A stretch of DNA of 64,000 bases. Source: Clostridium sp. CAG:914. Its GTDB lineage: Bacteria > Bacillota_I > Bacilli_A > RF39 > UBA660. The notes under the pieces are model-generated. The model ran no database searches and was not told where the DNA came from. It saw only the letters and a list, made by a program, of their open reading frames with translations. The DNA lies in contig FR902162.1 of assembly GCA_000437895.1 (NCBI GenBank), forward strand, positions 68,289-132,288, written 5' to 3'. Shown here piece after piece: positions 25,501 to 43,210 of this stretch (positions are counted from its first letter, which is position 1; each line of letters begins with the position of its first letter). A program made the translations under genes and the position numbers.

Positions 25501-25842
25501 ATGGATAACATAAACGAATTTAAGTCCTTTGTAAAAAAACACCCCAATTTAAATAGCTATGTCACAGATGGACAAATGACATGGCAAAAGTTCTACGAAA
25601 TGTACGATATGTATGGAGAAGATAGTGAAGTTTGGCAATCATATAAAACAAAAGAAAGAAAGACAACAAGTTTAACAGATATAGTCAATATGGCCAAAAA
25701 TGTCGATGTAGATAAATTACAAGATGGAATAGGGTCTCTTCAAAAAGCTATAACTTTGTTTAGCGATTTATTCTTATCTAAAGATACAGAAGCAAAATCC
25801 ACATATAAACCAAGAGCTATATATAAAAGGTTTGATGACTAA
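25501..25842 (+). CDS. ylbD: YlbD-like protein (putative spore coat protein family)
   Basis: N-terminal EFKSFVKKHPNL...TWQKFYEMY resembles B. subtilis YlbD. ylbD-ylbE-ylbF-rsmD synteny. Confidence 0.45.
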   Translation: MDNINEFKSFVKKHPNLNSYVTDGQMTWQKFYEMYDMYGEDSEVWQSYKTKERKTTSLTDIVNMAKNVDVDKLQDGIGSLQKAITLFSDLFLSKDTEAKSTYKPRAIYKRFDD

Positions 25843-26063
25843 TGAGTTTAGAATTACAATATAGAATAAACAGTGATCCAAGATTAAAACAATTTCTAAG
25901 AGAAAATTCCTATTGGTATAAATATCTAAATAGAAGTAATACCTATCTAAAACCATTTATATCTGATATGAAAGATAAATATAAATTAAAAACAACAGAT
26001 AAAATAAATAAATTAACTAATAATATTAGTATGGTAAGAGCTTTCTTAGATGTCTTAAAATAA
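25842..26063 (+). CDS. ylbE: YlbE-like protein
   Basis: P.LKQFLRENSYWYKYLNRS matches the YlbE-family N-terminal pattern. The synteny supports the call. Confidence 0.45.
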   Translation: MSLELQYRINSDPRLKQFLRENSYWYKYLNRSNTYLKPFISDMKDKYKLKTTDKINKLTNNISMVRAFLDVLK

Positions 26064-26101
26064 AAGTAGACAATATAAAATTATTGTGTTATTCTTGATA
26101 T

Positions 26102-26404
26102 ATGAACGAAATTATAGAAAATACATTTATTTTTATAGACGATTTAGAAAAGTCAGACTTAATTAAAGAATTAACTGAATGCAAAGAAATATTATCAAAA
26201 GATAATAAAGTTTTAAATCTAATAAAAGAATATAATAATCTAGAAGATACAAATATACTATTAAATCTAAAGAAAGAGTTATATCAAAATCATACTTATC
26301 AAAGATATATGGAATTATATGATGAATTATATATGTTAGTTAAAAGCATCAATAAAAAGTATTCAAGTTATCTAGGAGAAAATGTATGTCAGAAAAATAC
26401 ATAA
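26102..26404 (+). CDS. ylbF: YlbF/YmcA-family (RicF-like) regulatory protein
   Basis: Size, helical character and position in the ylb cluster. Confidence 0.45.
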   Translation: MNEIIENTFIFIDDLEKSDLIKELTECKEILSKDNKVLNLIKEYNNLEDTNILLNLKKELYQNHTYQRYMELYDELYMLVKSINKKYSSYLGENVCQKNT

Positions 26405-27616: not shown

Positions 27617-27734
27617 TATTAGTGATAGTAATGGAAATTGTCAATAATTATCATAAAGTGTGTAAAATTTAATAGCTAACAGTTGACAATGACCAAGCAA
27701 AATGATAACCTTATATCATAGGAGGAAAATAAAA

Positions 27735-28187
27735 ATGAAAAAATTAAACAGAAAAGGTTTTACATTAGTTGAGTTACTAGCAGTTATCATAATTCTAGCT
27801 GTAGTAGTAGGTATTACTATACCAACAATTTTAACTACAACAGCTAATGCCAAGAAAAAAGCATTTGAAACAGCAGCAGCAACAGCAGCAGATTGGTTTG
27901 ACAGACAATATCAGTCATATTTAATTGGTAATCCAGATTTATCACAATATGATGCAGCTTTTGAAACACTTTTCATTGATACTACCAATAAAACATTAAA
28001 GCAAACATCGGTAAAAATAGATGCTACATCTTTAATTCAAAATGCTGGATTATCAACAAAAAATGTTTTAAAAATGGAAGTAACATTCAATAGTGCTGGA
28101 AGATCATGTGTTGAACTAACACCACAACCAGATGGTGATTATGCTAACATTACTGGTATGCCCACAGCTGAAGGTGGAAATTGTTAA
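27735..28187 (+). CDS. Type IV (major) pilin-like protein with C-terminal disulfide loop
   Basis: Class III prepilin leader MKKLNRKG|FTLVELLAVIIILAVV with Gly-1/Phe+1/Glu+5. C-terminal Cys...Cys D-region-like loop (SCVELTPQPDGDYANITGMPTAEGGNC). Takes the internal ATG as start. Confidence 0.7.
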   Translation: MKKLNRKGFTLVELLAVIIILAVVVGITIPTILTTTANAKKKAFETAAATAADWFDRQYQSYLIGNPDLSQYDAAFETLFIDTTNKTLKQTSVKIDATSLIQNAGLSTKNVLKMEVTFNSAGRSCVELTPQPDGDYANITGMPTAEGGNC

Positions 28188-28260: not shown

Positions 28261-29166
28261 ATGAATGAATTAATTATAGGAAGTCATGTATCATTTAATA
28301 ATAAAGATCAATTATTAGGGGCTGTTAAAGAAGCAGTATCTTATGGAAGCAATACATTTATGTTTTATACGGGAGCGCCTCAAAATACTAGACGAGGAGA
28401 AATAAATGATTTTGTGACTTTAGAAGCATATAAATTAATGAAAGAAAATAATATTGAATTAGATAAAGTAATAGTACATGCTCCATATATTGTTAATTTA
28501 GCAAATCCAGATAATATGGAGTTCTCAATTGATTTTTTAACTAATGAAGTAGAAAGATGTAATTTACTAGGTATGAAATATTTGGTTCTACATCCCGGTT
28601 CTAGCGTTAATGTATCAAGAGAAGAAGGAATTGCTAATATTATTAAAGGACTAAATGCTATATTGACAAATAACAATAATATTTGTATATGTTTAGAAAC
28701 TATGGCAGGTAAGGGTAACGAATTAGGAAGAAACTTTTTAGAATTAAAAGAAATTATAGATGGAGTAAATTTTAAAGATTCAATTGGAGTATGTATGGAT
28801 ACATGTCATTTATTTGATAGTGGTATTGATATAACAGATTTTGACAAAGTATTAGATGACTTTGATAAACAAATAGGACTAAATTATTTAAAATGTATTC
28901 ATATAAATGATAGTAAGAATATATTCTCTAGTCATAAAGATAGACATGAGAATATAGGGTATGGTAACATTGGTTTTGATATATTAATTAAAATTATATA
29001 TAATGAAAGAATTAAAAATATACCAAAAATATTAGAAACTCCTTATGTAGGAAAAACTGATGATGACAAAGAAAGAATATATCCACCATATAAATATGAA
29101 ATAGAGATGATTAGAAATAAAAAATTTGATACTAGTCTTTTAGAAAAAATTAGAAATAATGAATAA
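28261..29166 (+). CDS. nfo: Endonuclease IV (AP endonuclease, Nfo)
   Basis: HAPYIVNLANP, HPGS, ETMAGKGNELG, CMDTCHLF and HINDSK motifs of the Nfo TIM barrel. Confidence 0.9.
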   Translation: MNELIIGSHVSFNNKDQLLGAVKEAVSYGSNTFMFYTGAPQNTRRGEINDFVTLEAYKLMKENNIELDKVIVHAPYIVNLANPDNMEFSIDFLTNEVERCNLLGMKYLVLHPGSSVNVSREEGIANIIKGLNAILTNNNNICICLETMAGKGNELGRNFLELKEIIDGVNFKDSIGVCMDTCHLFDSGIDITDFDKVLDDFDKQIGLNYLKCIHINDSKNIFSSHKDRHENIGYGNIGFDILIKIIYNERIKNIPKILETPYVGKTDDDKERIYPPYKYEIEMIRNKKFDTSLLEKIRNNE

Positions 29167-29302
29167 AGTATGTTATTTAAAAAATAATATGCTTTTTTCT
29201 ATCTATCTATGTAATTTAATAAAAAAATAATATTTCACTTAAATGTAGTTGATATTTTGCCAAATATTTTGTATAATGTTAGAAGAATAGGAGTGTTTTA
29301 AC

Positions 29303-29959
29303 ATGGCAGAAAAACCGGAAATGACAGTTGAATATGACAATAAATTTGGCGTTAAACATTATAAAGTTAAAGTAATTAAGAAAAAAGAAAATCTTTTTAA
29401 ATACATTGTAAGTGTATTATCTTATGCTGTTTTTATATGGCTTCTTCTTATTGGAGGAACACTGCTTTTATATGTAGCAGATATTAAGATAAGAGCCATG
29501 AAAGGAGATAATTCTCCACCGGTATTTAATGCTTATGTTGTTATGTCTGGTAGTATGTTACCACAGATTAAAATAAAAGATATTGTTGTTACTAAAAGAG
29601 TTCCTGAAGAAAGACTTAAAGTTGAAGATGTTATAACATTTATTAGTCCAGACGAAAGACTTGGAGGAATAACTATTACTCATAGAATAAAAGAAAAATT
29701 TTATGATGATAGTATTAAAGGCTTCTATTATAGAACAAAAGGTGATAATAATAATATTGCTGATCCAGCTTTAGTTCCTTATGATAATATATTAGGTAAA
29801 GTAATACTAAAAATACCTAAATTAGGATATTTACAAGACATACTTGCAAGTAAAGGAACAGTTATAATTGTAATAATTATTCCATGTCTAGTAATATTTT
29901 CTTATGATATAATGAAGGGCTTAAAGAGTCTAGGAAAAAAGACTAAACTTATAAAATAG
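29303..29959 (+). CDS. sipW: SipW-type (archaeal/ER-like) signal peptidase I
   Basis: Catalytic VVMSGSMLP (SGSMEP-like), DVITF, ITHRI and KTKGDNN motifs. A C-terminal TM anchor follows the catalytic domain, which is characteristic of SipW. Confidence 0.8.
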   Translation: MAEKPEMTVEYDNKFGVKHYKVKVIKKKENLFKYIVSVLSYAVFIWLLLIGGTLLLYVADIKIRAMKGDNSPPVFNAYVVMSGSMLPQIKIKDIVVTKRVPEERLKVEDVITFISPDERLGGITITHRIKEKFYDDSIKGFYYRTKGDNNNIADPALVPYDNILGKVILKIPKLGYLQDILASKGTVIIVIIIPCLVIFSYDIMKGLKSLGKKTKLIK

Positions 29960-29969
29960 GAGTTATTTC

Positions 29970-31619
29970 ATGAGTAAGAAAAAATATGATGTAGTAGAAC
30001 TTAACAAAAAAGAAAATAAAATACTACTTGAAAAAAAACAAAATATGTTCATTTTGTTCTTAAATAAAATGGGACCATTATTTTCTATATTATTACTATT
30101 AATAGGCATTGGATTAGTGTCTCTAAGTTTAATGTTAGTAACAAAAAAATTACTAGTGTCTGAAGAACCTAATATCAAAGATGCTAAAATAACAGTTAAG
30201 TTTTTAGATGACATATCAGATGTTACAATGAAGAATATTACCCCTATACCAGAAAATACTGCTGTGAATAGCTTTAAAAATAGTAATGTATTTGCATCTA
30301 ATGGGGAAATTCTTATATATAAAAAAGTAGAAGCAAGTAGTTACATAATATATTATTTTAGTGATAAAAGTGCTTTAAAATTAAATAAAGAAGATAATAC
30401 AGTTATTAGAATTGCTCCCATAAATAATGAATATGGCATAAGTGATAATGGTACAATCAATATGAGCACTAAAATGAGTAATATAAACATAGATAATATA
30501 AAAGATACTAACTATGGAAAAATAACATATTTTACTGATGGAAGTGCTTTAATTACTAATAGTGATATAGATATGTTTGTAAGAAATAGTCTAGATATAA
30601 AAGAAAATTATATTTCTAATAATAAAGTATCTTATTTAAAAAATACTAATATTGAAAATGGTAAAGAAATAAATAACTTTTATGATGGAAGTATGTTAAT
30701 TAATTATAATGGTACAAATTATATTGTAAGAAATAATGATGATATAAAAGTAAATGGAAAAAATATAACATTTCCAAATAACAATCAAGCAACATTAACA
30801 GAAAGTATATCATTAGAACATAATATAAGAATAGATTATTATAGTGATGGATCTGCTATTGTTAAAGACGGCAGTAAAATAATTAGTGTAAGAAAAAGTA
30901 ACAGTATTATTATAAAAAACAATACTTTAATAGAAATAATTGATAATGTTGAAGTAAGTATTGCATCAACTAAAGATAATACCACATACTATACAAATGG
31001 AAGTGCTATGACAAAATATAATGATTTATTAGTGTTTGTTTCTGATAATTCACAAATTAAATATAAAGATAATAATGTTAATATTGAAGATAATTATAAA
31101 GAATTAACTCGTGAAAGTCATTTAAATAATGAAGATATATTTATATTTGATGATATAACTATTGTTACTAAAGATAATAAAACAATTATAACTAATACTA
31201 GCAATGTTATCATGGATAGTGATGGATATGTAAAAGAAATTATTAATAATACAATTGAAGATGATAAATTTTCCTTTACTATATCTAATGATACTAATGA
31301 AGAAATTAATTATAGAGTAGTTATAGAGTCATCAGAAAAAACAACTCTAGATACGAAGTTTATGAGATATATTTTAAGTTATAATAATATATATACTAAT
31401 CCTAGCAAATTAGAAGATAATATTTGGAAATATGATAAATTAAGTGAAAAATTAAACTTAAATGGTATTAATTATATTCTATTAGAAAAAAGTCTAGAGG
31501 CATATCAAATGGATGAAATATCTTTGATGTTATGGACTGATTATGAAACTATTCCTAATTCTATGATGAATAAAGCATTTTTAGGAACAATAAAAGTATA
31601 TTCTTGGATTAACGAATAA
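29970..31619 (+). CDS. N-terminally membrane-anchored surface protein with repeated YxxDGSA motifs
   Basis: Single TM near residues 35-55. Four copies of the Y(F/Y)(S/T)DGSA(L/I/M) motif at about 50-60 aa spacing. No cleavable SipW-type signal. Confidence 0.4.
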   Translation: MSKKKYDVVELNKKENKILLEKKQNMFILFLNKMGPLFSILLLLIGIGLVSLSLMLVTKKLLVSEEPNIKDAKITVKFLDDISDVTMKNITPIPENTAVNSFKNSNVFASNGEILIYKKVEASSYIIYYFSDKSALKLNKEDNTVIRIAPINNEYGISDNGTINMSTKMSNINIDNIKDTNYGKITYFTDGSALITNSDIDMFVRNSLDIKENYISNNKVSYLKNTNIENGKEINNFYDGSMLINYNGTNYIVRNNDDIKVNGKNITFPNNNQATLTESISLEHNIRIDYYSDGSAIVKDGSKIISVRKSNSIIIKNNTLIEIIDNVEVSIASTKDNTTYYTNGSAMTKYNDLLVFVSDNSQIKYKDNNVNIEDNYKELTRESHLNNEDIFIFDDITIVTKDNKTIITNTSNVIMDSDGYVKEIINNTIEDDKFSFTISNDTNEEINYRVVIESSEKTTLDTKFMRYILSYNNIYTNPSKLEDNIWKYDKLSEKLNLNGINYILLEKSLEAYQMDEISLMLWTDYETIPNSMMNKAFLGTIKVYSWINE

Positions 31620-31635
31620 CTAGAAAGGTGGTACT

Positions 31636-33873
31636 ATGGAAGAAATATTAAATAAAAAAAATTATATTTTATTAATAGCAATTATTTTTGTGGCCGTTTC
31701 TTTATCAGGTACCACATATTCATTGTTTATTAAAGTAGATGATACTAATCAATTTAATTATAAAACAGGTATATTAGATCTAGAATTCCAAGAAGAAAAC
31801 ATCATTGAATTACCAGAAGCTTTCCCTGTTAGTGACACTAAAGGAATGTCTTATGAACCGTACACTTTATCAGTTAAAAATATAGGAACAATTGCATATA
31901 TCTTTGATTTAAAAGTATCTGATAATGATGATAATAAACTAATTAATAGTAAATATATTAAAGTACAAATAGATGATAATTTACCAATAACACTACAAAA
32001 TAGTAATAATACATTAAAGAAAAATATAATTTTATATCCAGGGGAAACAATAAAATTTAAAATAAAAATGTGGTTAGATATAAATACTCCAAATACTGAA
32101 CTTGGAAAACAATTTAATGCTACATTAATTACCAGTGGCAGTTCATTTTATAAAACTTTAGATGAAAGTGGAGCTAACCACCCAAGTCTAGAAGATAATA
32201 TGCTTCCTGTATATTATGATGAATATAACAAGGTATGGAAAAAAGCTGATGAAAGTAATTTAGATGCTAGTTATAAATGGTATGATTATGATGATAAAAT
32301 GTGGGCTAATTCTATAGTTTTAAAAGATGGAGAAAAGGTTATTCATGATATATCAAGTAAAAATAATAATATAAAAAATATAAGTAATATAAATGTAATT
32401 GATAAAAATTTAATATTAGAAAATAATAAATTAGATATAAATTTAAGTAAGTATATTAATAAGAACATAAGTATTGTAGAAAGATTGGCTTTAAATGACT
32501 TAAAGCATAATGATATAGATATTATTTCAAGCGATGGATTTAATTTAAGATATAATACTAAAAATAATAATTTTATTATAGATATAAATGGATTTAATAT
32601 AACATCTAATAAATATATTATTGAGGAAAATAAATTTTATATTATAAGTCTTACTATGAGTGATAAAGACATAAATCTATATATAAATGGTAGTAGTGTT
32701 TTAAATTATAGTATGGCAATCAATACAAATTATAATATATTAACTATTGGTGGTATAGGAAATGTTTTAGTTAGTGATTTATATGTATATAATGATATAT
32801 TGACAAGTAAAGAAGTAAATAATAATTATAGGGATAATCTAATATTAATAACTGATAATTTAGTAAGTGGATATAATAATTTTTATCCAATGACAACGGA
32901 TAGCTATTATAAAAGTAGTCCTTTAGGAACTACTATTAAAGATAGTGATATAAATGAATTTTATGTATGGATACCAAGATTTAAGTATCGTTTATGGAAT
33001 GTTACTGGAGAACCTAATATAAGTTCTTATGATGCTTACACTAAAGGAATAGATATATCTTTTGAAAAAAATAAAGAAAGTGGAGGAAGTATATACTGTA
33101 AAGATAATATTTGTTATAGTGATGAGGGGAGAATAATACCTTTAACACAAAATGATAATGACAAATACTATACACCAAGTAGTTTTACTAACAATGAGGA
33201 ATTATTAGGATTTTGGGTTGGTAAGTACGAAGTATCTAATGGTTGCAAAGATAATTGCCTAACCAATAGCAGTAACTTTACTATACTACCTAATCAAGAA
33301 TCATGGAGAAATAATAATTTATCTAATTATTATGAAGCTATAAAAGGTAAAGCAAACAGTTATCATATAATAAAAAATAGTGAATGGGGAACTATAAGTT
33401 ATCTATCACATTCAAAGTATGGAATATGTTCTAACATGAAATGTACAGAGATAACTTCAAACAATACATATATTTCAGGAAAAGACGAAAAAGACAGTAC
33501 TACAGGAAACATCTATGGAGTATATGATATGGCAGGAAGTGCTTCAGAATTTGTTATGGCAAATTATTCCACAAATAATTCTTTAGCACTAAATAATAGT
33601 AATTTCAAATATAACACTACTATCCCTAGTACTGATTATGATTTGTATAGTGGTACTAACTTTATCTTAGGAGACGCTACAAAAGAAATACTTTTGTCAT
33701 CGTCAAATACAGGTGCTTGGTACAACAATTACTCTGTATTTATCGACAAAGTAAATAACTGGTTTATACGTGGTGGAATGGCTGGAAATGAAGTTGGTAA
33801 TGGAATATTCTACTATAATGCTACTAGTGATAATCAAAGCGAATATATATCCACAAGAGTAGTTATTAGATAA
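31636..33873 (+). CDS. TasA/camelysin-like N-terminal domain with SipW-cognate signal peptide fused to a C-terminal FGE/SUMF1-like domain
   Basis: N-terminus LLIAIIFVAVSLSGTTYSLF...KTGILDLEF parallels TasA ...GGGTWAAF...SGTLDLSA. C-terminal NIYGVYDMAGSASEFV...FIRGGMAGNE resembles FGE-sulfatase-family motifs (YGLYDMSGNVWEW...RGGSW). Confidence 0.55.
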   Translation: MEEILNKKNYILLIAIIFVAVSLSGTTYSLFIKVDDTNQFNYKTGILDLEFQEENIIELPEAFPVSDTKGMSYEPYTLSVKNIGTIAYIFDLKVSDNDDNKLINSKYIKVQIDDNLPITLQNSNNTLKKNIILYPGETIKFKIKMWLDINTPNTELGKQFNATLITSGSSFYKTLDESGANHPSLEDNMLPVYYDEYNKVWKKADESNLDASYKWYDYDDKMWANSIVLKDGEKVIHDISSKNNNIKNISNINVIDKNLILENNKLDINLSKYINKNISIVERLALNDLKHNDIDIISSDGFNLRYNTKNNNFIIDINGFNITSNKYIIEENKFYIISLTMSDKDINLYINGSSVLNYSMAINTNYNILTIGGIGNVLVSDLYVYNDILTSKEVNNNYRDNLILITDNLVSGYNNFYPMTTDSYYKSSPLGTTIKDSDINEFYVWIPRFKYRLWNVTGEPNISSYDAYTKGIDISFEKNKESGGSIYCKDNICYSDEGRIIPLTQNDNDKYYTPSSFTNNEELLGFWVGKYEVSNGCKDNCLTNSSNFTILPNQESWRNNNLSNYYEAIKGKANSYHIIKNSEWGTISYLSHSKYGICSNMKCTEITSNNTYISGKDEKDSTTGNIYGVYDMAGSASEFVMANYSTNNSLALNNSNFKYNTTIPSTDYDLYSGTNFILGDATKEILLSSSNTGAWYNNYSVFIDKVNNWFIRGGMAGNEVGNGIFYYNATSDNQSEYISTRVVIR

Positions 33874-33908
33874 TAATAAAACTGATTAGAATTTTTTACT
33901 AATCAGTT

Positions 33909-34772
33909 TTATTTATATTCAGCTTTAATCATTTTAGCATGAATAACAATTCTTTTTGTACTATCATTATTACAAGTAGATAAAGTTAAAATTTTATCTT
34001 CCGTTGAAATATCTTCATTAAAATCATATATGCTTCTTCCTTTAATCGTATCAACAAACTTTTGATGTTCTTCCTCTGTTTCAAAATAAGTCTTTAAGTA
34101 ATATACTTCTGTTTTAATCATATATATTGAAAATATTTTCCATACAGTATTAGAGGTAGGAGTGGATACTTTGATATAATGATTATCGACATTAGTATAC
34201 CAACTATCTTTTAAACACCAAGTTAATGTACTAAACATCGTATCTGTTCTTGTATTATGAGCATAAATAATAGAATTATTACCAAAATATTTAAAATCAT
34301 CACGATAGTCAGCATAAACCCAACCACTACGATTACTTTTTTTATTAAAATCATGTTTTAAATAGTATGCATTATCACTCGTTTGTACAACTGGATAATT
34401 AACATTAGTATTATTAACCTTAATCCACCCCACAGTATCGCTGTTTTTGGATAATAATTCCCCAAAATCAACATTCATAAAACTAATATTCTTATATTTG
34501 TCTTCACTATCTGGATAATATTCAACATAATCAATAGTTTCTTGCTTTTCATCTTTTAAAGCTTCTGTAGTTTTTAAAATATCGTTTGTAAGAAAATCCA
34601 ACTTCAATTGCTGAACATACCACTTAGAACAAATAAATACACAAATAAGATAAGTACCTAATGTCAAAGATAAAATAATTATAGGTATAACAGGTTTACC
34701 ATTGTACTTAATTTCATTTGCTTTCTTTGGATTAAATAATGTTATAATACCCTGTATAAAATATTTTGGCAT
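33909..34772 (-). CDS. srtB: Class B sortase
   Basis: Aligns along its length with S. aureus SrtB: DTVGWIKVNNTNVNYPVVQ, IIYAHN (His), TMFSTL, KILTLSTCNN...TKRIVIHAKMIK (TLxTC Cys plus conserved Arg). N-terminal TM anchor. Confidence 0.8.
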   Translation of the reverse strand: MPKYFIQGIITLFNPKKANEIKYNGKPVIPIIILSLTLGTYLICVFICSKWYVQQLKLDFLTNDILKTTEALKDEKQETIDYVEYYPDSEDKYKNISFMNVDFGELLSKNSDTVGWIKVNNTNVNYPVVQTSDNAYYLKHDFNKKSNRSGWVYADYRDDFKYFGNNSIIYAHNTRTDTMFSTLTWCLKDSWYTNVDNHYIKVSTPTSNTVWKIFSIYMIKTEVYYLKTYFETEEEHQKFVDTIKGRSIYDFNEDISTEDKILTLSTCNNDSTKRIVIHAKMIKAEYK

Positions 34773-34927
34773 AGTTATAACAGTTTTTAGTCCTAAGAAA
34801 AACCATCTAAAAATATCTATTATAACACCTCCATATTCTTATAAAATTATATCAAATAATATAATATTTGTCGATATTTTTTATTTTTTTCTACAAAAGA
34901 AATTAATATAGTGGTATAATACACTTA

Positions 34928-35485
34928 ATGGAGGGAAGTGAATTTGTGGATAATAATATAAAAGTTGGAGATAAATTACAAATTCATTGCTATAAACATG
35001 ACGGATCATTACATCGAACTTGGGATGAAGCAACATTATTAGAAATACACGATGATTATTTAGTTTTTGGTAATAATCAAACAACCGTCGTAGATGCAGA
35101 TGGAAAAGTATGGAAAACGAAAGAACCTGCTATCATGTTTTTCTTTAAAGATAGATGGTTTAATATTATAGGTCAGTTAAAAGATTATGGAATATATTTT
35201 TATTGTAATATCGCAACACCAGCACTAATTGATAATAAAGTAATAAAATACATTGACTATGACTTAGATTTAAGAGTTTTCCCTAACGGAAGTTTTAAAA
35301 TACTAGATCGTATGGAATATAAATACCATAAAAAACAAATGCACTATTCTAATAGATTAGATTTTATTTTAAAATATGAATTAGGTAATTTAATAGATAT
35401 GGTTAGAGTAAGAGAAACACCATTTAATAAAGAAGTTATAAATAATTATTATGAAAAATATGTAGAATTAACAAACAAAAAATAA
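34928..35485 (+). CDS. DUF402/YgaC-family nucleoside tri/diphosphatase (Ntdp-like)
   Basis: GDKLQIHCYKHDGSLHRTWDE...DYDLDLRV pattern of the DUF402 family. The true start may be the internal GTG. Confidence 0.65.
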   Translation: MEGSEFVDNNIKVGDKLQIHCYKHDGSLHRTWDEATLLEIHDDYLVFGNNQTTVVDADGKVWKTKEPAIMFFFKDRWFNIIGQLKDYGIYFYCNIATPALIDNKVIKYIDYDLDLRVFPNGSFKILDRMEYKYHKKQMHYSNRLDFILKYELGNLIDMVRVRETPFNKEVINNYYEKYVELTNKK

Positions 35486-38099: not shown

Positions 38100-38582
38100 A
38101 TGAAAAATAAAGGTTTTACATTAATAGAATTACTTGCTACCCTAATAATTTTAGCTCTAATCACCTCTGTAGTAACAATAGTTACATTGAATACTATGAA
38201 AAAAGCTAAAGAAAAAGAAAGAGATATTCTTGTTGCAAACATTATAGATGGAGCTACCGCTATGGCATTAGAATGTGTAAACACTACACCAAAAGAATTA
38301 CCTATATGTGGGAATATTAATGAAAACAACAAAATACCTTTAGGAGATTTAGTAAAATATGGATATATACAAGGTGATGAAAATGGAAAGATTTATAATC
38401 CCGCCGCCTCAAAAGAAGAATACAAAGATGTCACAGATTGTGAGTTTTACATAGAAACAATCAAAGATGTAGCAGAATTTCATATCTGTGAGATGAACGA
38501 GAGTGGTAAACCAATATGTCCAAATGGACCACAAATAGAAAAGTGTTATGAATTAAAATTAGCTGTAGATGGAGGAAAATAA
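38100..38582 (+). CDS. Type IV pilin/pseudopilin-like, Cys-rich
   Basis: Prepilin leader MKNKG|FTLIELLATLIILALI. Mature region has about 7 Cys. Confidence 0.6.
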   Translation: MKNKGFTLIELLATLIILALITSVVTIVTLNTMKKAKEKERDILVANIIDGATAMALECVNTTPKELPICGNINENNKIPLGDLVKYGYIQGDENGKIYNPAASKEEYKDVTDCEFYIETIKDVAEFHICEMNESGKPICPNGPQIEKCYELKLAVDGGK

Positions 38583-41761: not shown

Positions 41762-42848
41762 AATGAGTGAATTAAAAATTATTGTACCAGAGAATTTTAA
41801 AGAAATGGGTTCAAAAATTAATACCCATATCCAAGCTCTAAGAAATACCCAAGATAATTATCTAGTAGATATTGATTTAGTAAGATTTAATAACGGAGAA
41901 GGTAAAGTATTGATAAATGAAACCATTAGGGAAAAAGATGTCTATATTATATCTGATGTTACTAACTATGATATAACTTATGAAGCATTTGGAAAAACAC
42001 ATAATATGATGCCAGATGAACATTACCAAGATATAAAAAGAATTCTAAGTGCAATATGTGGACATGCTAAAAAAATAACTCTAATTATGCCATATATGTA
42101 TCAATCAAGGCAAGATAAAAAATCAGGCCGTGAATCACTAGACTGTGCTGTAGCCTTACAAGAATTAGTAAAAAGTGGTGTAAATGAAGTAATTACGTTT
42201 GATATTCATAATAGTGGAATATGTAATGCTATACCAGATATTGCCTTTGAAAATATATATGCTACCGATGAAATGTTATTTAATTTAATAACAAAAGAGA
42301 ATATAAGTTCTAAAAACTTAGTTGTCGTATCACCTGATGAAGGAGCAATGAAAAGAGCAAGTCTACTATCTGATATATTAGGAGGAATTCCTGTTGCTTC
42401 GTTTTACAAACAAAGAGATTATACTAAATTAGAGAATGGTCATCACCCAATAATAGAACATCGCTTTTTAGGCCCAGATTCACTAGAAGGAAAAGATGTT
42501 ATCGTAGCAGATGATATGATTGCATCAGGAGGATCATTATTAGATACTTCAGAAAGACTAAAGAAATTAAAAGCTAATAGAATATTTTTAATGGCAACAT
42601 TTGCCTTGTTTACAAGTGGTCCTGATAAATTTGATTTATTTTACAAGAAAAAATATTTTGATAGAGTATATGCTACAAATTTATCTTATGTACCAGAAAA
42701 TATTAGAAAAAAAGAGTGGTTTATTTTGATAGATTGTTCATATAAATTAAGTTATGTTATAAATGAACTTAATCAAGGACATTCTATATCTAGTATACTA
42801 GACGGAGAAGCCAACATTATAGAAAAATTAAAGGATGTGAATATATGA
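41751..42848 (+). CDS. prs: Ribose-phosphate pyrophosphokinase family (PRPP synthetase-like, with insertion)
   Basis: PYMYQSRQDKK (compare PYFGYARQDRR), VVSPDEGAMKRA, PRPP-binding DDMIASGGSL. Confidence 0.65.
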   Translation: MRSKMSELKIIVPENFKEMGSKINTHIQALRNTQDNYLVDIDLVRFNNGEGKVLINETIREKDVYIISDVTNYDITYEAFGKTHNMMPDEHYQDIKRILSAICGHAKKITLIMPYMYQSRQDKKSGRESLDCAVALQELVKSGVNEVITFDIHNSGICNAIPDIAFENIYATDEMLFNLITKENISSKNLVVVSPDEGAMKRASLLSDILGGIPVASFYKQRDYTKLENGHHPIIEHRFLGPDSLEGKDVIVADDMIASGGSLLDTSERLKKLKANRIFLMATFALFTSGPDKFDLFYKKKYFDRVYATNLSYVPENIRKKEWFILIDCSYKLSYVINELNQGHSISSILDGEANIIEKLKDVNI

Positions 42849-43210
42849 AATTAAATAACAAAGGCTTTACACTAATAGAATTATTAGCAGTAATAGTTTT
42901 ACTAATAGCTATATCAGCCATTGCTATACCAAGTATTACTGCCTCAATAGAAAGAAGCAAAGCCAAACAAGATGATGCCAAAAAAAGAATTATTGAATCT
43001 TCAGCAGAATTATACTATTCAAATAATAAAAATAAATTAACTAATTTTAAAAATGGTACTTGTTATATAAGTGTAGATGACTTAGATTTAACTGACAAAG
43101 AAAAAACAGATCCATATAACAATACATATAATGGTGGAGTGGTTTATGAAAATAAAAAATATGTATATAAAGATGCAGATGAAATAAAAATAAGTAAATG
43201 TAACATCTAG
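42845..43210 (+). CDS. Type IV pilin/pseudopilin-like (ComGC/PilA-like)
   Basis: Prepilin leader MKLNNKG|FTLIELLAVIVLLIAI. Start overlaps the prs stop. Confidence 0.6.
   Translation: MKLNNKGFTLIELLAVIVLLIAISAIAIPSITASIERSKAKQDDAKKRIIESSAELYYSNNKNKLTNFKNGTCYISVDDLDLTDKEKTDPYNNTYNGGVVYENKKYVYKDADEIKISKCNI

Follow-up and report, generated by a model that had tools for sequence, protein, structure and literature searches.

A SipW-linked, TasA-type N-terminal domain joined to a lectin-like head in a candidate adhesin of uncultured gut Bacilli

How might an uncultured gut bacterium of the Bacilli hold a large lectin-like protein at its surface? The question is raised by a gene of Clostridium sp. 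CAG:914, which was studied within a 64,000-nt stretch of contig FR902162.1 (assembly GCA_000437895.1), called the window in the following. The open reading frame (ORF) spans positions 31636–33873 of the + strand exactly, from ATG to stop, and encodes a protein of 745 amino acids (aa), ORF745. It is the third and last of three closely packed + strand genes, sipW-ORF549-ORF745; the gaps between them are 10 nt (sipW/ORF549) and 16 nt (ORF549/ORF745). We consider it moderately probable that ORF745 is the exported, adhesin-type product of this operon, which would be docked through a donor strand set free by SipW cleavage and would carry a lectin head. TasA-type fibres are mainly known as plain biofilm scaffolds of Bacillus and, in recent descriptions, as bundling pili of archaea. 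We know of no described means by which uncultured, reduced-genome gut Bacilli or "Tenericutes" attach to the host or to food particles.

ORF745 was split into the segments N (aa 1–173), L, G and C, and their coordinates are given in Table 1 together with those of the other features. AlphaFold2 (AF2), run on 77 diverse homologues, gave a full model with a mean predicted local distance difference test value (pLDDT) of 90.6 and a predicted template-modelling score (pTM) of 0.81. The model consists of a helix (aa 10–28), a β-sandwich of eight strands (aa 39–171), a strand-rich part (aa 189–229), a β-rich part (aa 253–414) and a large final domain, identical to segment C, with sparse regular secondary structure and pLDDT values of 85–98. 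The domain assignments derived for ORF745 are well supported.

The initial annotation had described the N-terminus as TasA- or camelysin-like with a TasA-type signal, on the strength of the motifs GTTYSLF and GILDLEF. Both motifs were found, at aa 25–31 and aa 45–51, and the profile links described below place the resemblance beyond chance. Cleavage of the signal peptide is predicted between S29 and L30 in TTY28-S29|L30-F31, with Y28 at P2 and F31 at P2'. The family consensus at aa 27–31 is [TS]-Y-A-x-F, which has an aromatic residue at P2, a small one at P1 and Phe at P2', as does TasA of Bacillus subtilis; hhalign aligned the signal region of ORF745 to GGGTWA|AF of TasA. The NCBIfam SipW-signal model did not match ORF745. 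SipW cuts TasA, which has Phe at P2', and this pattern of residues makes TasA a substrate of SipW and not of LepB (PMC10269814).

The segment directly behind the predicted cut (aa 30–41) aligned with residues 28–38 of TasA. In TasA, SipW frees these residues, which then act as a donor strand and complete the sandwich of the following subunit (PMC9674648). Identity among orthologues was 0.58 for aa 30–41 of ORF745 compared to 0.47 for the rest of the N domain. The segment was unplaced in both monomer models, i.e. the full model and a separate one of aa 1–176 (pLDDT 84), and pLDDT was below 50 at aa 26–35. Being conserved yet unplaced would fit a strand that needs a partner.

The β-sandwich core behind this segment was modelled with eight strands and pLDDT values mostly between 80 and 95. 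A profile of 28 N-domain homologues (alignment A3) was compared by hhalign with B. subtilis TasA and matched it at a probability of 85.5% (E = 5.7e-6) over the signal and about 80 aa. The paired strings were GGGTWA|AF with GTTYS|LF, SGTLDLSA with TGILDLEF and FQFENNGSL with YTLSVKNIGTI. Further links were provided by a related locus on a 3.7-kb contig (L065), in which a 601-aa protein with an N domain and a C-type-lectin-like (C-lectin) module (447–2252) is directly followed by an N-domain-only protein of 185 aa (2380–2937). The signal peptide and first strands of the two are nearly the same, and the pair looks like an adhesin with its major subunit. The smaller protein matched Pfam Peptidase_M73 (PF12389) with 47.8 bits and A3 with a probability of 97.2% (E = 3e-11) over almost its full length, and the larger one matched Peptidase_M73 with 31.7 bits at profile positions 16–172 of 196. 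Among the 28 homologous N domains, six had Peptidase_M73 matches; that of P0186 reached 26.1 bits (gathering score 22.5). A3 also touched archaeal AbpX weakly (E = 0.12). From these profiles and the gene context, the N domain of ORF745 is predicted to belong to the TasA/camelysin superfamily. The evidence supports membership in the superfamily and not Pfam-level membership in Peptidase_M73. An NCBIfam ArlG match of ORF745 (E = 0.16) was treated as noise.

A peptidase suited to the predicted cut is encoded by the first gene of the operon. Its product matched NCBIfam TIGR02228 (sigpep_I_arch) with 92 bits (E = 3e-26; cut-off 51.85) and the SipW-Bacillus model with E = 1.1e-23, which is under the equivalog cut-off. 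ORF549 adjoins ORF745 in all seven of the closest orthologous loci and sipW adjoins in six of them (L002–L007), the seventh (L001) ending at a contig edge. The gene order was the same in four independent metagenome assemblies of the species.

ORF549 has one transmembrane helix and no TasA-type cleavage motif. It matched no Pfam or NCBIfam model, and its approx. 500 homologues are unnamed and nearly all 549–558 aa long. Its C-terminal part is homologous to the N-domain core of ORF745: profile A3 against profile A6 aligned aa 409–547 of ORF549 with aa 60–170 of ORF745 at a probability of 96.9% (E = 1.4e-10), single-sequence versions of the hhalign comparison gave E = 1.6e-7 and 5.7e-7, and hmmsearch matched the ORF549 orthologue of L001 at 2.5e-11. 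A BLASTP comparison between ORF549 and the N domain of ORF745 gave no significant alignment; the homology is visible by profile methods only. In the TasA-like domain of ORF549, the donor strand and the first hairpin are without counterparts. Orthologues of ORF549 are 43–56% identical, with the exception of an almost invariant cytoplasmic N-terminal peptide, KKxEVVELNKKEExIxLEEKQ (aa 1–37, 29970–30080). This invariant peptide (VVELNK) suggests an intracellular interaction or a regulatory role of the anchor protein. The ectodomain contains diverged direct repeats (family D1, 30347–31067) with an irregular spacing of ~150–310 nt between detected copies, which encode the motif (Y/F)Y(S/T)DGSA...(V/I)R.

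Behind its N domain, ORF745 had been described as a long middle region followed by a domain of the formylglycine-generating enzyme (FGE)/SUMF1 type in the last ~200 aa. The middle region is present, but it had to be corrected to a recognisable LamG/ConA-like domain that is nested in a C-lectin module. Laminin_G_3 (PF13385) matched the isolated segment aa 191–430 with 28.7 bits (gathering score 27.6) and the whole protein with 24.8 bits. Foldseek with the full model returned the binding domain of BoNT/B, trans-sialidase entries and LamG-annotated phage and viral proteins with E-values of 1e-8 to 1e-10 and a probability of 1.0. These full-model fold searches of the PDB and viral libraries gave LamG-type matches only and none for the N or C modules.

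The four segments were then compared with 150 representatives of 50%-identity clusters. In these, L is almost always found directly before C, including a tandem arrangement [L-C]x5, and the G insert was present in only ~7 of the 150. As G is rare and L-C a near-constant pair, G is an insertion into the L-C module. L belongs to the most conserved stretches of the whole family, and at least 90% of the sequences share its residues W215, Y218, W223, A224 and N225. None of the Pfam and NCBIfam models matched L. We infer that L and C make up one structural unit with L as its obligate N-terminal part.

The similarity of this unit to FGE is weak but real, and it is not restricted to the last ~200 aa, as the module comprises aa 174–235 and 421–745. 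The C-terminal motifs named in the initial annotation were located as YGVYDM (aa 627–632), SEFVM (aa 637–641) and RGG (aa 712–714). Pfam FGE-sulfatase (PF03781) scored 22.7 bits on the isolated segment and 19.5 bits on the whole protein, so the gathering score of 23.3 was not reached; the match covered aa 620–666 only (profile positions 169–212 of 255). A weak match of this kind was found in six of 50 relatives. The blocks GxWVGKFE, HxxKNxEWGAxxYL, GNxYGVYDMxGxxxEF, WFxRGG and a terminal xxRVVx strand follow one another in what we take to be the order of the conserved FGE-sulfatase blocks, which served as a lead only. Against the PDB, a family profile of 50 sequences matched 5vf4 (TaqVP, E = 9.8e-6) and PvdO (E = 0.46), a smaller profile gave the same two matches, and phmmer with ORF745 alone returned nothing useful. 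Pfam matches of ORF745 to Cep192 and Chlam_PMP were treated as noise.

An enzyme of the FGE/SUMF1 family that acts outside the cell, whether formylglycine-generating or another oxidase, would account for the weak Pfam match and for the high conservation of the motifs GKFE, HxxKNxEW, STTG and LGDAxxE. This identity is very improbable and was rejected on account of the missing catalytic Cys pair. In FGE, the catalytic, Cu-binding pair is expected C-terminal to the RGG(S) motif. The initial annotation had proposed to check its conservation; no Cys follows R712-G-G in ORF745 or in the aligned columns of 77 homologues, and aa 604–745 of ORF745 contain none. In addition, the Pfam match comprises 44 of 255 positions under the gathering score, the best solved relatives TaqVP and PvdO are non-enzymatic, and the module is found in tandem arrays as well as in fusions with pilin or dockerin, which is typical of binding modules. 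Given the lack of the Cys pair, the C module is better understood as a binding-type C-lectin fold than as an FGE enzyme, and FGE-sulfatase similarity in this family must not be taken as an enzyme in annotation. The six Cys present form three close pairs (i/i+4–5; 488/493, 537/541 and 598/603), as expected for disulfide-stapled extracellular loops.

TaqVP belongs to the variable proteins of diversity-generating retroelements (DGRs) and has a C-type-lectin fold of the FGE subtype, which its authors describe as a general fold for ligand binding (10.1101/432187). If ORF745 were a DGR variable protein as well, with a hypermutated C-terminal C-lectin region, the identity of its best PDB relative and the clustering of its polymorphism near the C-terminus would be explained. 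This is hardly conceivable and was rejected, since the window contains no template repeat, i.e. no second copy of the last 574 nt of the gene (33300–33873), and the variation is haplotype-like. Reverse transcriptases were absent among the ten flanking genes scanned and the called genes of related loci. The 119 full-length metagenome variants (96–100% identical) represent two or three haplotypes with no adenine-directed hypervariation. Common polymorphisms affect ~6.8% of the C-segment positions compared to 2–3% in the N and LamG domains (~2.5 times denser) and cluster at aa 688–701 (33697–33738) and 731–744 (33826–33867); an example of linked haplotypes is SS.N..A.Y....V versus TQ.S..S.D....I. 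The clustered haplotypes could stem from allelic exchange or from selection at a putative ligand-binding face. In DGR C-lectin proteins, the counterpart of this polymorphic region is the variable end that binds the ligand (comparison: 10.1101/432187).

Like TaqVP, TvpA, Mtd and PvdO, with which it shares distant similarity over α2-β2-β3 (HxxxNxEW..., GxxDxxGxxxEW), the C module has lost FGE catalysis and would use the fold as a ligand-binding scaffold with long inserts. Unlike these proteins, ORF745 has neither a template repeat in the window nor hypervariation, and it is a secreted protein with a filament-type domain attached. Its module is also much larger owing to inserts and the nested LamG domain, and the conserved L has no described counterpart.

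The fusion itself had been called unusual in the initial annotation, which did not hold. Scanning 1.84 billion representatives (clusters at 50% identity) with the whole protein by HMMER yielded 3195 clusters at E ≤ 1e-3, of which 256 reached E ≤ 1e-30; over 7900 proteins with E < 1e-10 were retrieved by a profile search. Few of the latter had a precomputed Pfam match and none carried a name in the source database; the cluster look-ups were likewise nameless. Judged by these sequence searches, the fusion of a TasA-type N domain with a C-lectin module is the regular architecture of a large family not yet described. A typical member has ~600–650 aa and consists of N domain, L and C with no LamG insert.

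TasA-type N-termini were recognised by a crude motif in ~72% of 264 relatives. A minority of relatives has canonical type IV pilin N-termini instead (GFTLxE, Pfam N_methyl; e.g. P0202, P0215, P0245, P0253 and P0256), and ORF745 has no N_methyl match and no GFTLxE-type prepilin motif. As the same C-lectin head occurs on TasA-type or type IV pilin N-termini, it appears as cargo on a filament-type chassis. A few relatives carry Ig-like domains or dockerin (P0325 and P0377, precomputed PF00404), and giant relatives contain two to five tandem L-C modules, namely, P0132 (4516 aa, five copies), P0134, P0224 and P0243. The tandem copies and the dockerin and Ig-like fusions indicate that the C-lectin module is a repeatable cassette.

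Genome contigs were scanned with a 12-sequence alignment. All matches were metagenome-assembled genomes labelled as uncultured Bacilli, Tenericutes, Erysipelotrichaceae or Clostridiales, some of them evidently mislabelled, from human, rabbit and ruminant gut, with many paralogous loci per genome. Specificity to the small clade of the window, in which orthologues are 43–53% identical, is limited to the version with a LamG domain and a linked sipW gene. The family thus provides prime candidate adhesins of uncultured, reduced-genome gut Bacilli/"Tenericutes" and candidate targets for glycan arrays and structural work.

The favoured explanation, a SipW-processed and donor-strand-docked adhesin, would proceed as follows. 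ORF745 would be exported by Sec and cut by SipW at S29|L30, as TasA is before A28-F29. The freed strand (aa 30–41) would enter the TasA-like acceptor groove of the C-terminal domain of ORF549 or of another ORF745, and this docking would tether or chain ORF745 at the cell surface with no need for a sortase. Finally, a ligand outside the cell would be bound by the LamG and C-lectin head; glycans on host mucus, on food particles or on other cells are the most likely candidates. Both the docking and any formation of fibres are inferred. A more far-reaching version, which is tentative and on balance unlikely, holds that the operon is a display system of a kind not described before, free of sortase and chaperone, in which the SipW-freed strand of the adhesin locks into an acceptor-only TasA-like domain at the tip of ORF549 as a membrane-anchored stalk, and that the TasA fold is a general chassis, interchangeable with type IV pilins, for a greatly expanded repertoire of C-lectin adhesins in uncultured gut Bacilli.

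Several results weigh against the favoured explanation. ORF745 itself did not match Peptidase_M73 even at E ≤ 10, and the TasA link is transitive and for most relatives lies mainly in the first ~80–110 residues. With the N-domain model, Foldseek found nothing below E = 1e-3 (best 2.8e-3), and TasA was outside the top 50; the weak top matches included several pilins of the chaperone-usher type and AbpA (7ueg), a bundling pilin of archaea that is TasA-like. The N-domain fold could therefore be a generic Ig-like sandwich. The assignment of the C module to a distant FGE-subtype C-type-lectin fold is a prediction from sequence profiles. No gene for a small TasA-like major subunit was found in the 64-kb window, and most paralogous loci have no adjacent sipW or N-domain-only gene. 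The suggestion of the initial annotation that a lectin-like module is shown on a fibre was thus retained in part: lectin-like display on a fibre-type chassis is the best reading, and polymerisation into a fibre is putative.

These points bear above all on the main rival, in which ORF745 is a monomeric lectin, secreted or tethered to the membrane, and the TasA-like domain serves merely as a spacer or stalk of the Ig-like type that exchanges no strand. The N-terminal helix would be cleaved for release or retained as a signal anchor, and ORF549 would be unrelated or merely co-expressed. Such a protein is possible, if rather less than probable: the Foldseek matches of the N domain are generic β-sandwiches with low TM-scores, the genes for a major subunit and for sipW are missing from the window and from beside most paralogues, respectively, and the AF2 monomer is confident (pTM 0.81) with no partner. 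A plain spacer agrees poorly, however, with a conserved TasA-type cleavage motif and post-cleavage segment, with a dedicated SipW-type peptidase in the same operon and with a homologous domain in ORF549 that is truncated at exactly the N-terminal strands. The same applies to the adhesin-like and subunit-like pair of L065 and to the relatives that swap in type IV pilin N-termini.

In another alternative, ORF745 is a homopolymer, i.e. a TasA-like fibre with a bulky lectin head on each subunit, and ORF549 is its membrane nucleator or anchor in the manner of TapA. ORF745 combines a donor-like strand with a complete acceptor sandwich, the operon has no other subunit gene, and TapA has been proposed to nucleate TasA by strand complementation (PMC9674648; PMC10151520). 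We nevertheless regard a homopolymer as improbable, as a head of 570 aa per subunit may clash sterically and the separate small subunit in L065 suggests that the large proteins are minor components.

The docked-adhesin explanation can be compared with three known systems. In the tapA-sipW-tasA operon of B. subtilis, an archaeal-type signal peptidase is likewise encoded with its presumed substrates, and there is an accessory protein with a related domain (TapA there, ORF549 here). The N-terminal regions of TasA and ORF745 are homologous, with GTLDL-type strands and an xFxxxNxG strand. The systems differ in that the N domain of ORF745 has ~145 mature residues compared to ~234 in TasA, stays under the Pfam threshold and is followed by the 570-aa LamG and C-lectin head. 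ORF549 is membrane-anchored at its N-terminus, has 549 aa and carries its TasA-like domain C-terminally. In addition, sipW comes first here, no stand-alone major subunit is encoded nearby, and the fibre is only putative.

PilC of Streptococcus sanguinis is a type IV pilin of modular build that carries a ConA-like lectin module (PMC9934059). It resembles ORF745, as does PilB with its vWA module, in that adhesive modules follow C-terminally on a filament-subunit N-terminus, one of them a lectin of the ConA/LamG type, and paralogues of ORF745 carry class III (GFTLxE) pilin N-termini. Unlike these pilins, ORF745 has a TasA-type β-sandwich chassis processed by SipW in place of the pilin α-helix and prepilin peptidase, and its main grafted module has the FGE-type C-lectin fold. 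If the explanation is true, a TasA subunit with grafted lectin modules extends the modular-pilin principle to a third filament chassis.

Tip adhesins that dock by donor strands (FimH/PapG of chaperone-usher pili and those of Bacteroides type V pili) also combine an Ig-like pilin domain for joining the fibre with a lectin domain for the receptor. For Bacteroides type V pili, adhesive components that are diversified by DGRs have been described (10.1101/2024.11.15.621889). In contrast to the hosts of such adhesins, that of ORF745 is Gram-positive/monoderm with no usher, chaperone or lipoprotein-sorting machinery.

Table 1. Positions in the window of the features of ORF745 and of its operon.
Feature	Residues	Position	Strand	Basis or remark
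Promoter-like TTGATA-17-TATAAT, 11/12 matches		29249..29277	+	Start codon of sipW 25 nt downstream
sipW-like (archaeal/ER-type) signal peptidase I, operon gene 1	218 aa	29303..29959	+	NCBIfam TIGR02228
ORF549, bitopic membrane protein		29970..31619	+	One transmembrane helix, repeat-rich ectodomain
ORF549, C-terminal TasA-like β-sandwich core	aa 409-547	31194..31610	+	Homologous to the ORF745 N-domain core
ORF745, predicted SipW/TasA-type signal peptide	aa 1-29	31636..31722	+	AF2 helix aa 10-28, family consensus
ORF745, putative donor-strand segment LFIKVDDTNQFN	aa 30-41	31723..31758	+	Alignment with TasA donor strand residues 28-38
ORF745, predicted TasA/camelysin-superfamily β-sandwich core	aa 42-173	31759..32154	+	AF2, hhalign, Peptidase_M73 matches of relatives
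ORF745, segment L, SGANxPxL...MIPVYYD...WYDYxxKxWANAV	aa 174-235	32155..32340	+	Co-occurrence with C
ORF745, segment G, LamG/ConA-like jelly-roll between L and C	aa 236-420	32341..32895	+	Pfam, Foldseek
ORF745, segment C, FGE-subtype C-type-lectin-like, no catalytic cysteines	aa 421-745	32896..33870	+	Profile matches
Terminator hairpin between ORF745 and the convergent sortase gene		33875..33913	.	RNA fold

The window has ~24% G+C and almost all of its genes lie on the + strand. The promoter-like site before sipW was the top + strand match within 29000–35000 and is followed by an AGGAG ribosome-binding site ahead of the gene. Promoter-like sites showed no enrichment over shuffles in this AT-rich DNA, and the promoter evidence is weak. 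The terminator hairpin was calculated at -15.3 kcal/mol (z = -7.0 compared to shuffles) and is followed by a U-rich tail. The ten flanking genes scanned have housekeeping functions (nfo, rsmD-like, tsaEBD, rimI, ung, deoD, yfmF/H).

A class B sortase gene on the - strand (33909–34772; TIGR03064, 159 bits) is convergent with ORF745. It is syntenic within the species and missing from more distant orthologous loci. No protein with a convincing C-terminal sorting signal was found in the 64-kb window, and the C-terminus of ORF745 (...YISTRVVIR) contains no LPXTG/NPQTN-type sorting motif. ORF745 was rejected as a substrate of this sortase, given the lack of a sorting signal and of conservation of the sortase gene in the orthologous loci.

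Small genes for type IV pilin-like proteins (GFTLxE / N_methyl, ComGC/ComGE-like) are located at 27702–28187, 38100–38582 and 42845–43210. They are dispersed among housekeeping genes and do not form a single pilus operon; one lies just upstream of nfo-sipW. Further upstream, small YlbD/YlbE/YlbF-like genes were found (25501–26404), the families of which are linked to sporulation or competence in Bacillus. An ORF of 100 aa at 26102–26404 gave a sub-threshold match to the NCBIfam model halo-CC-star (HcsL) with E = 1e-7.

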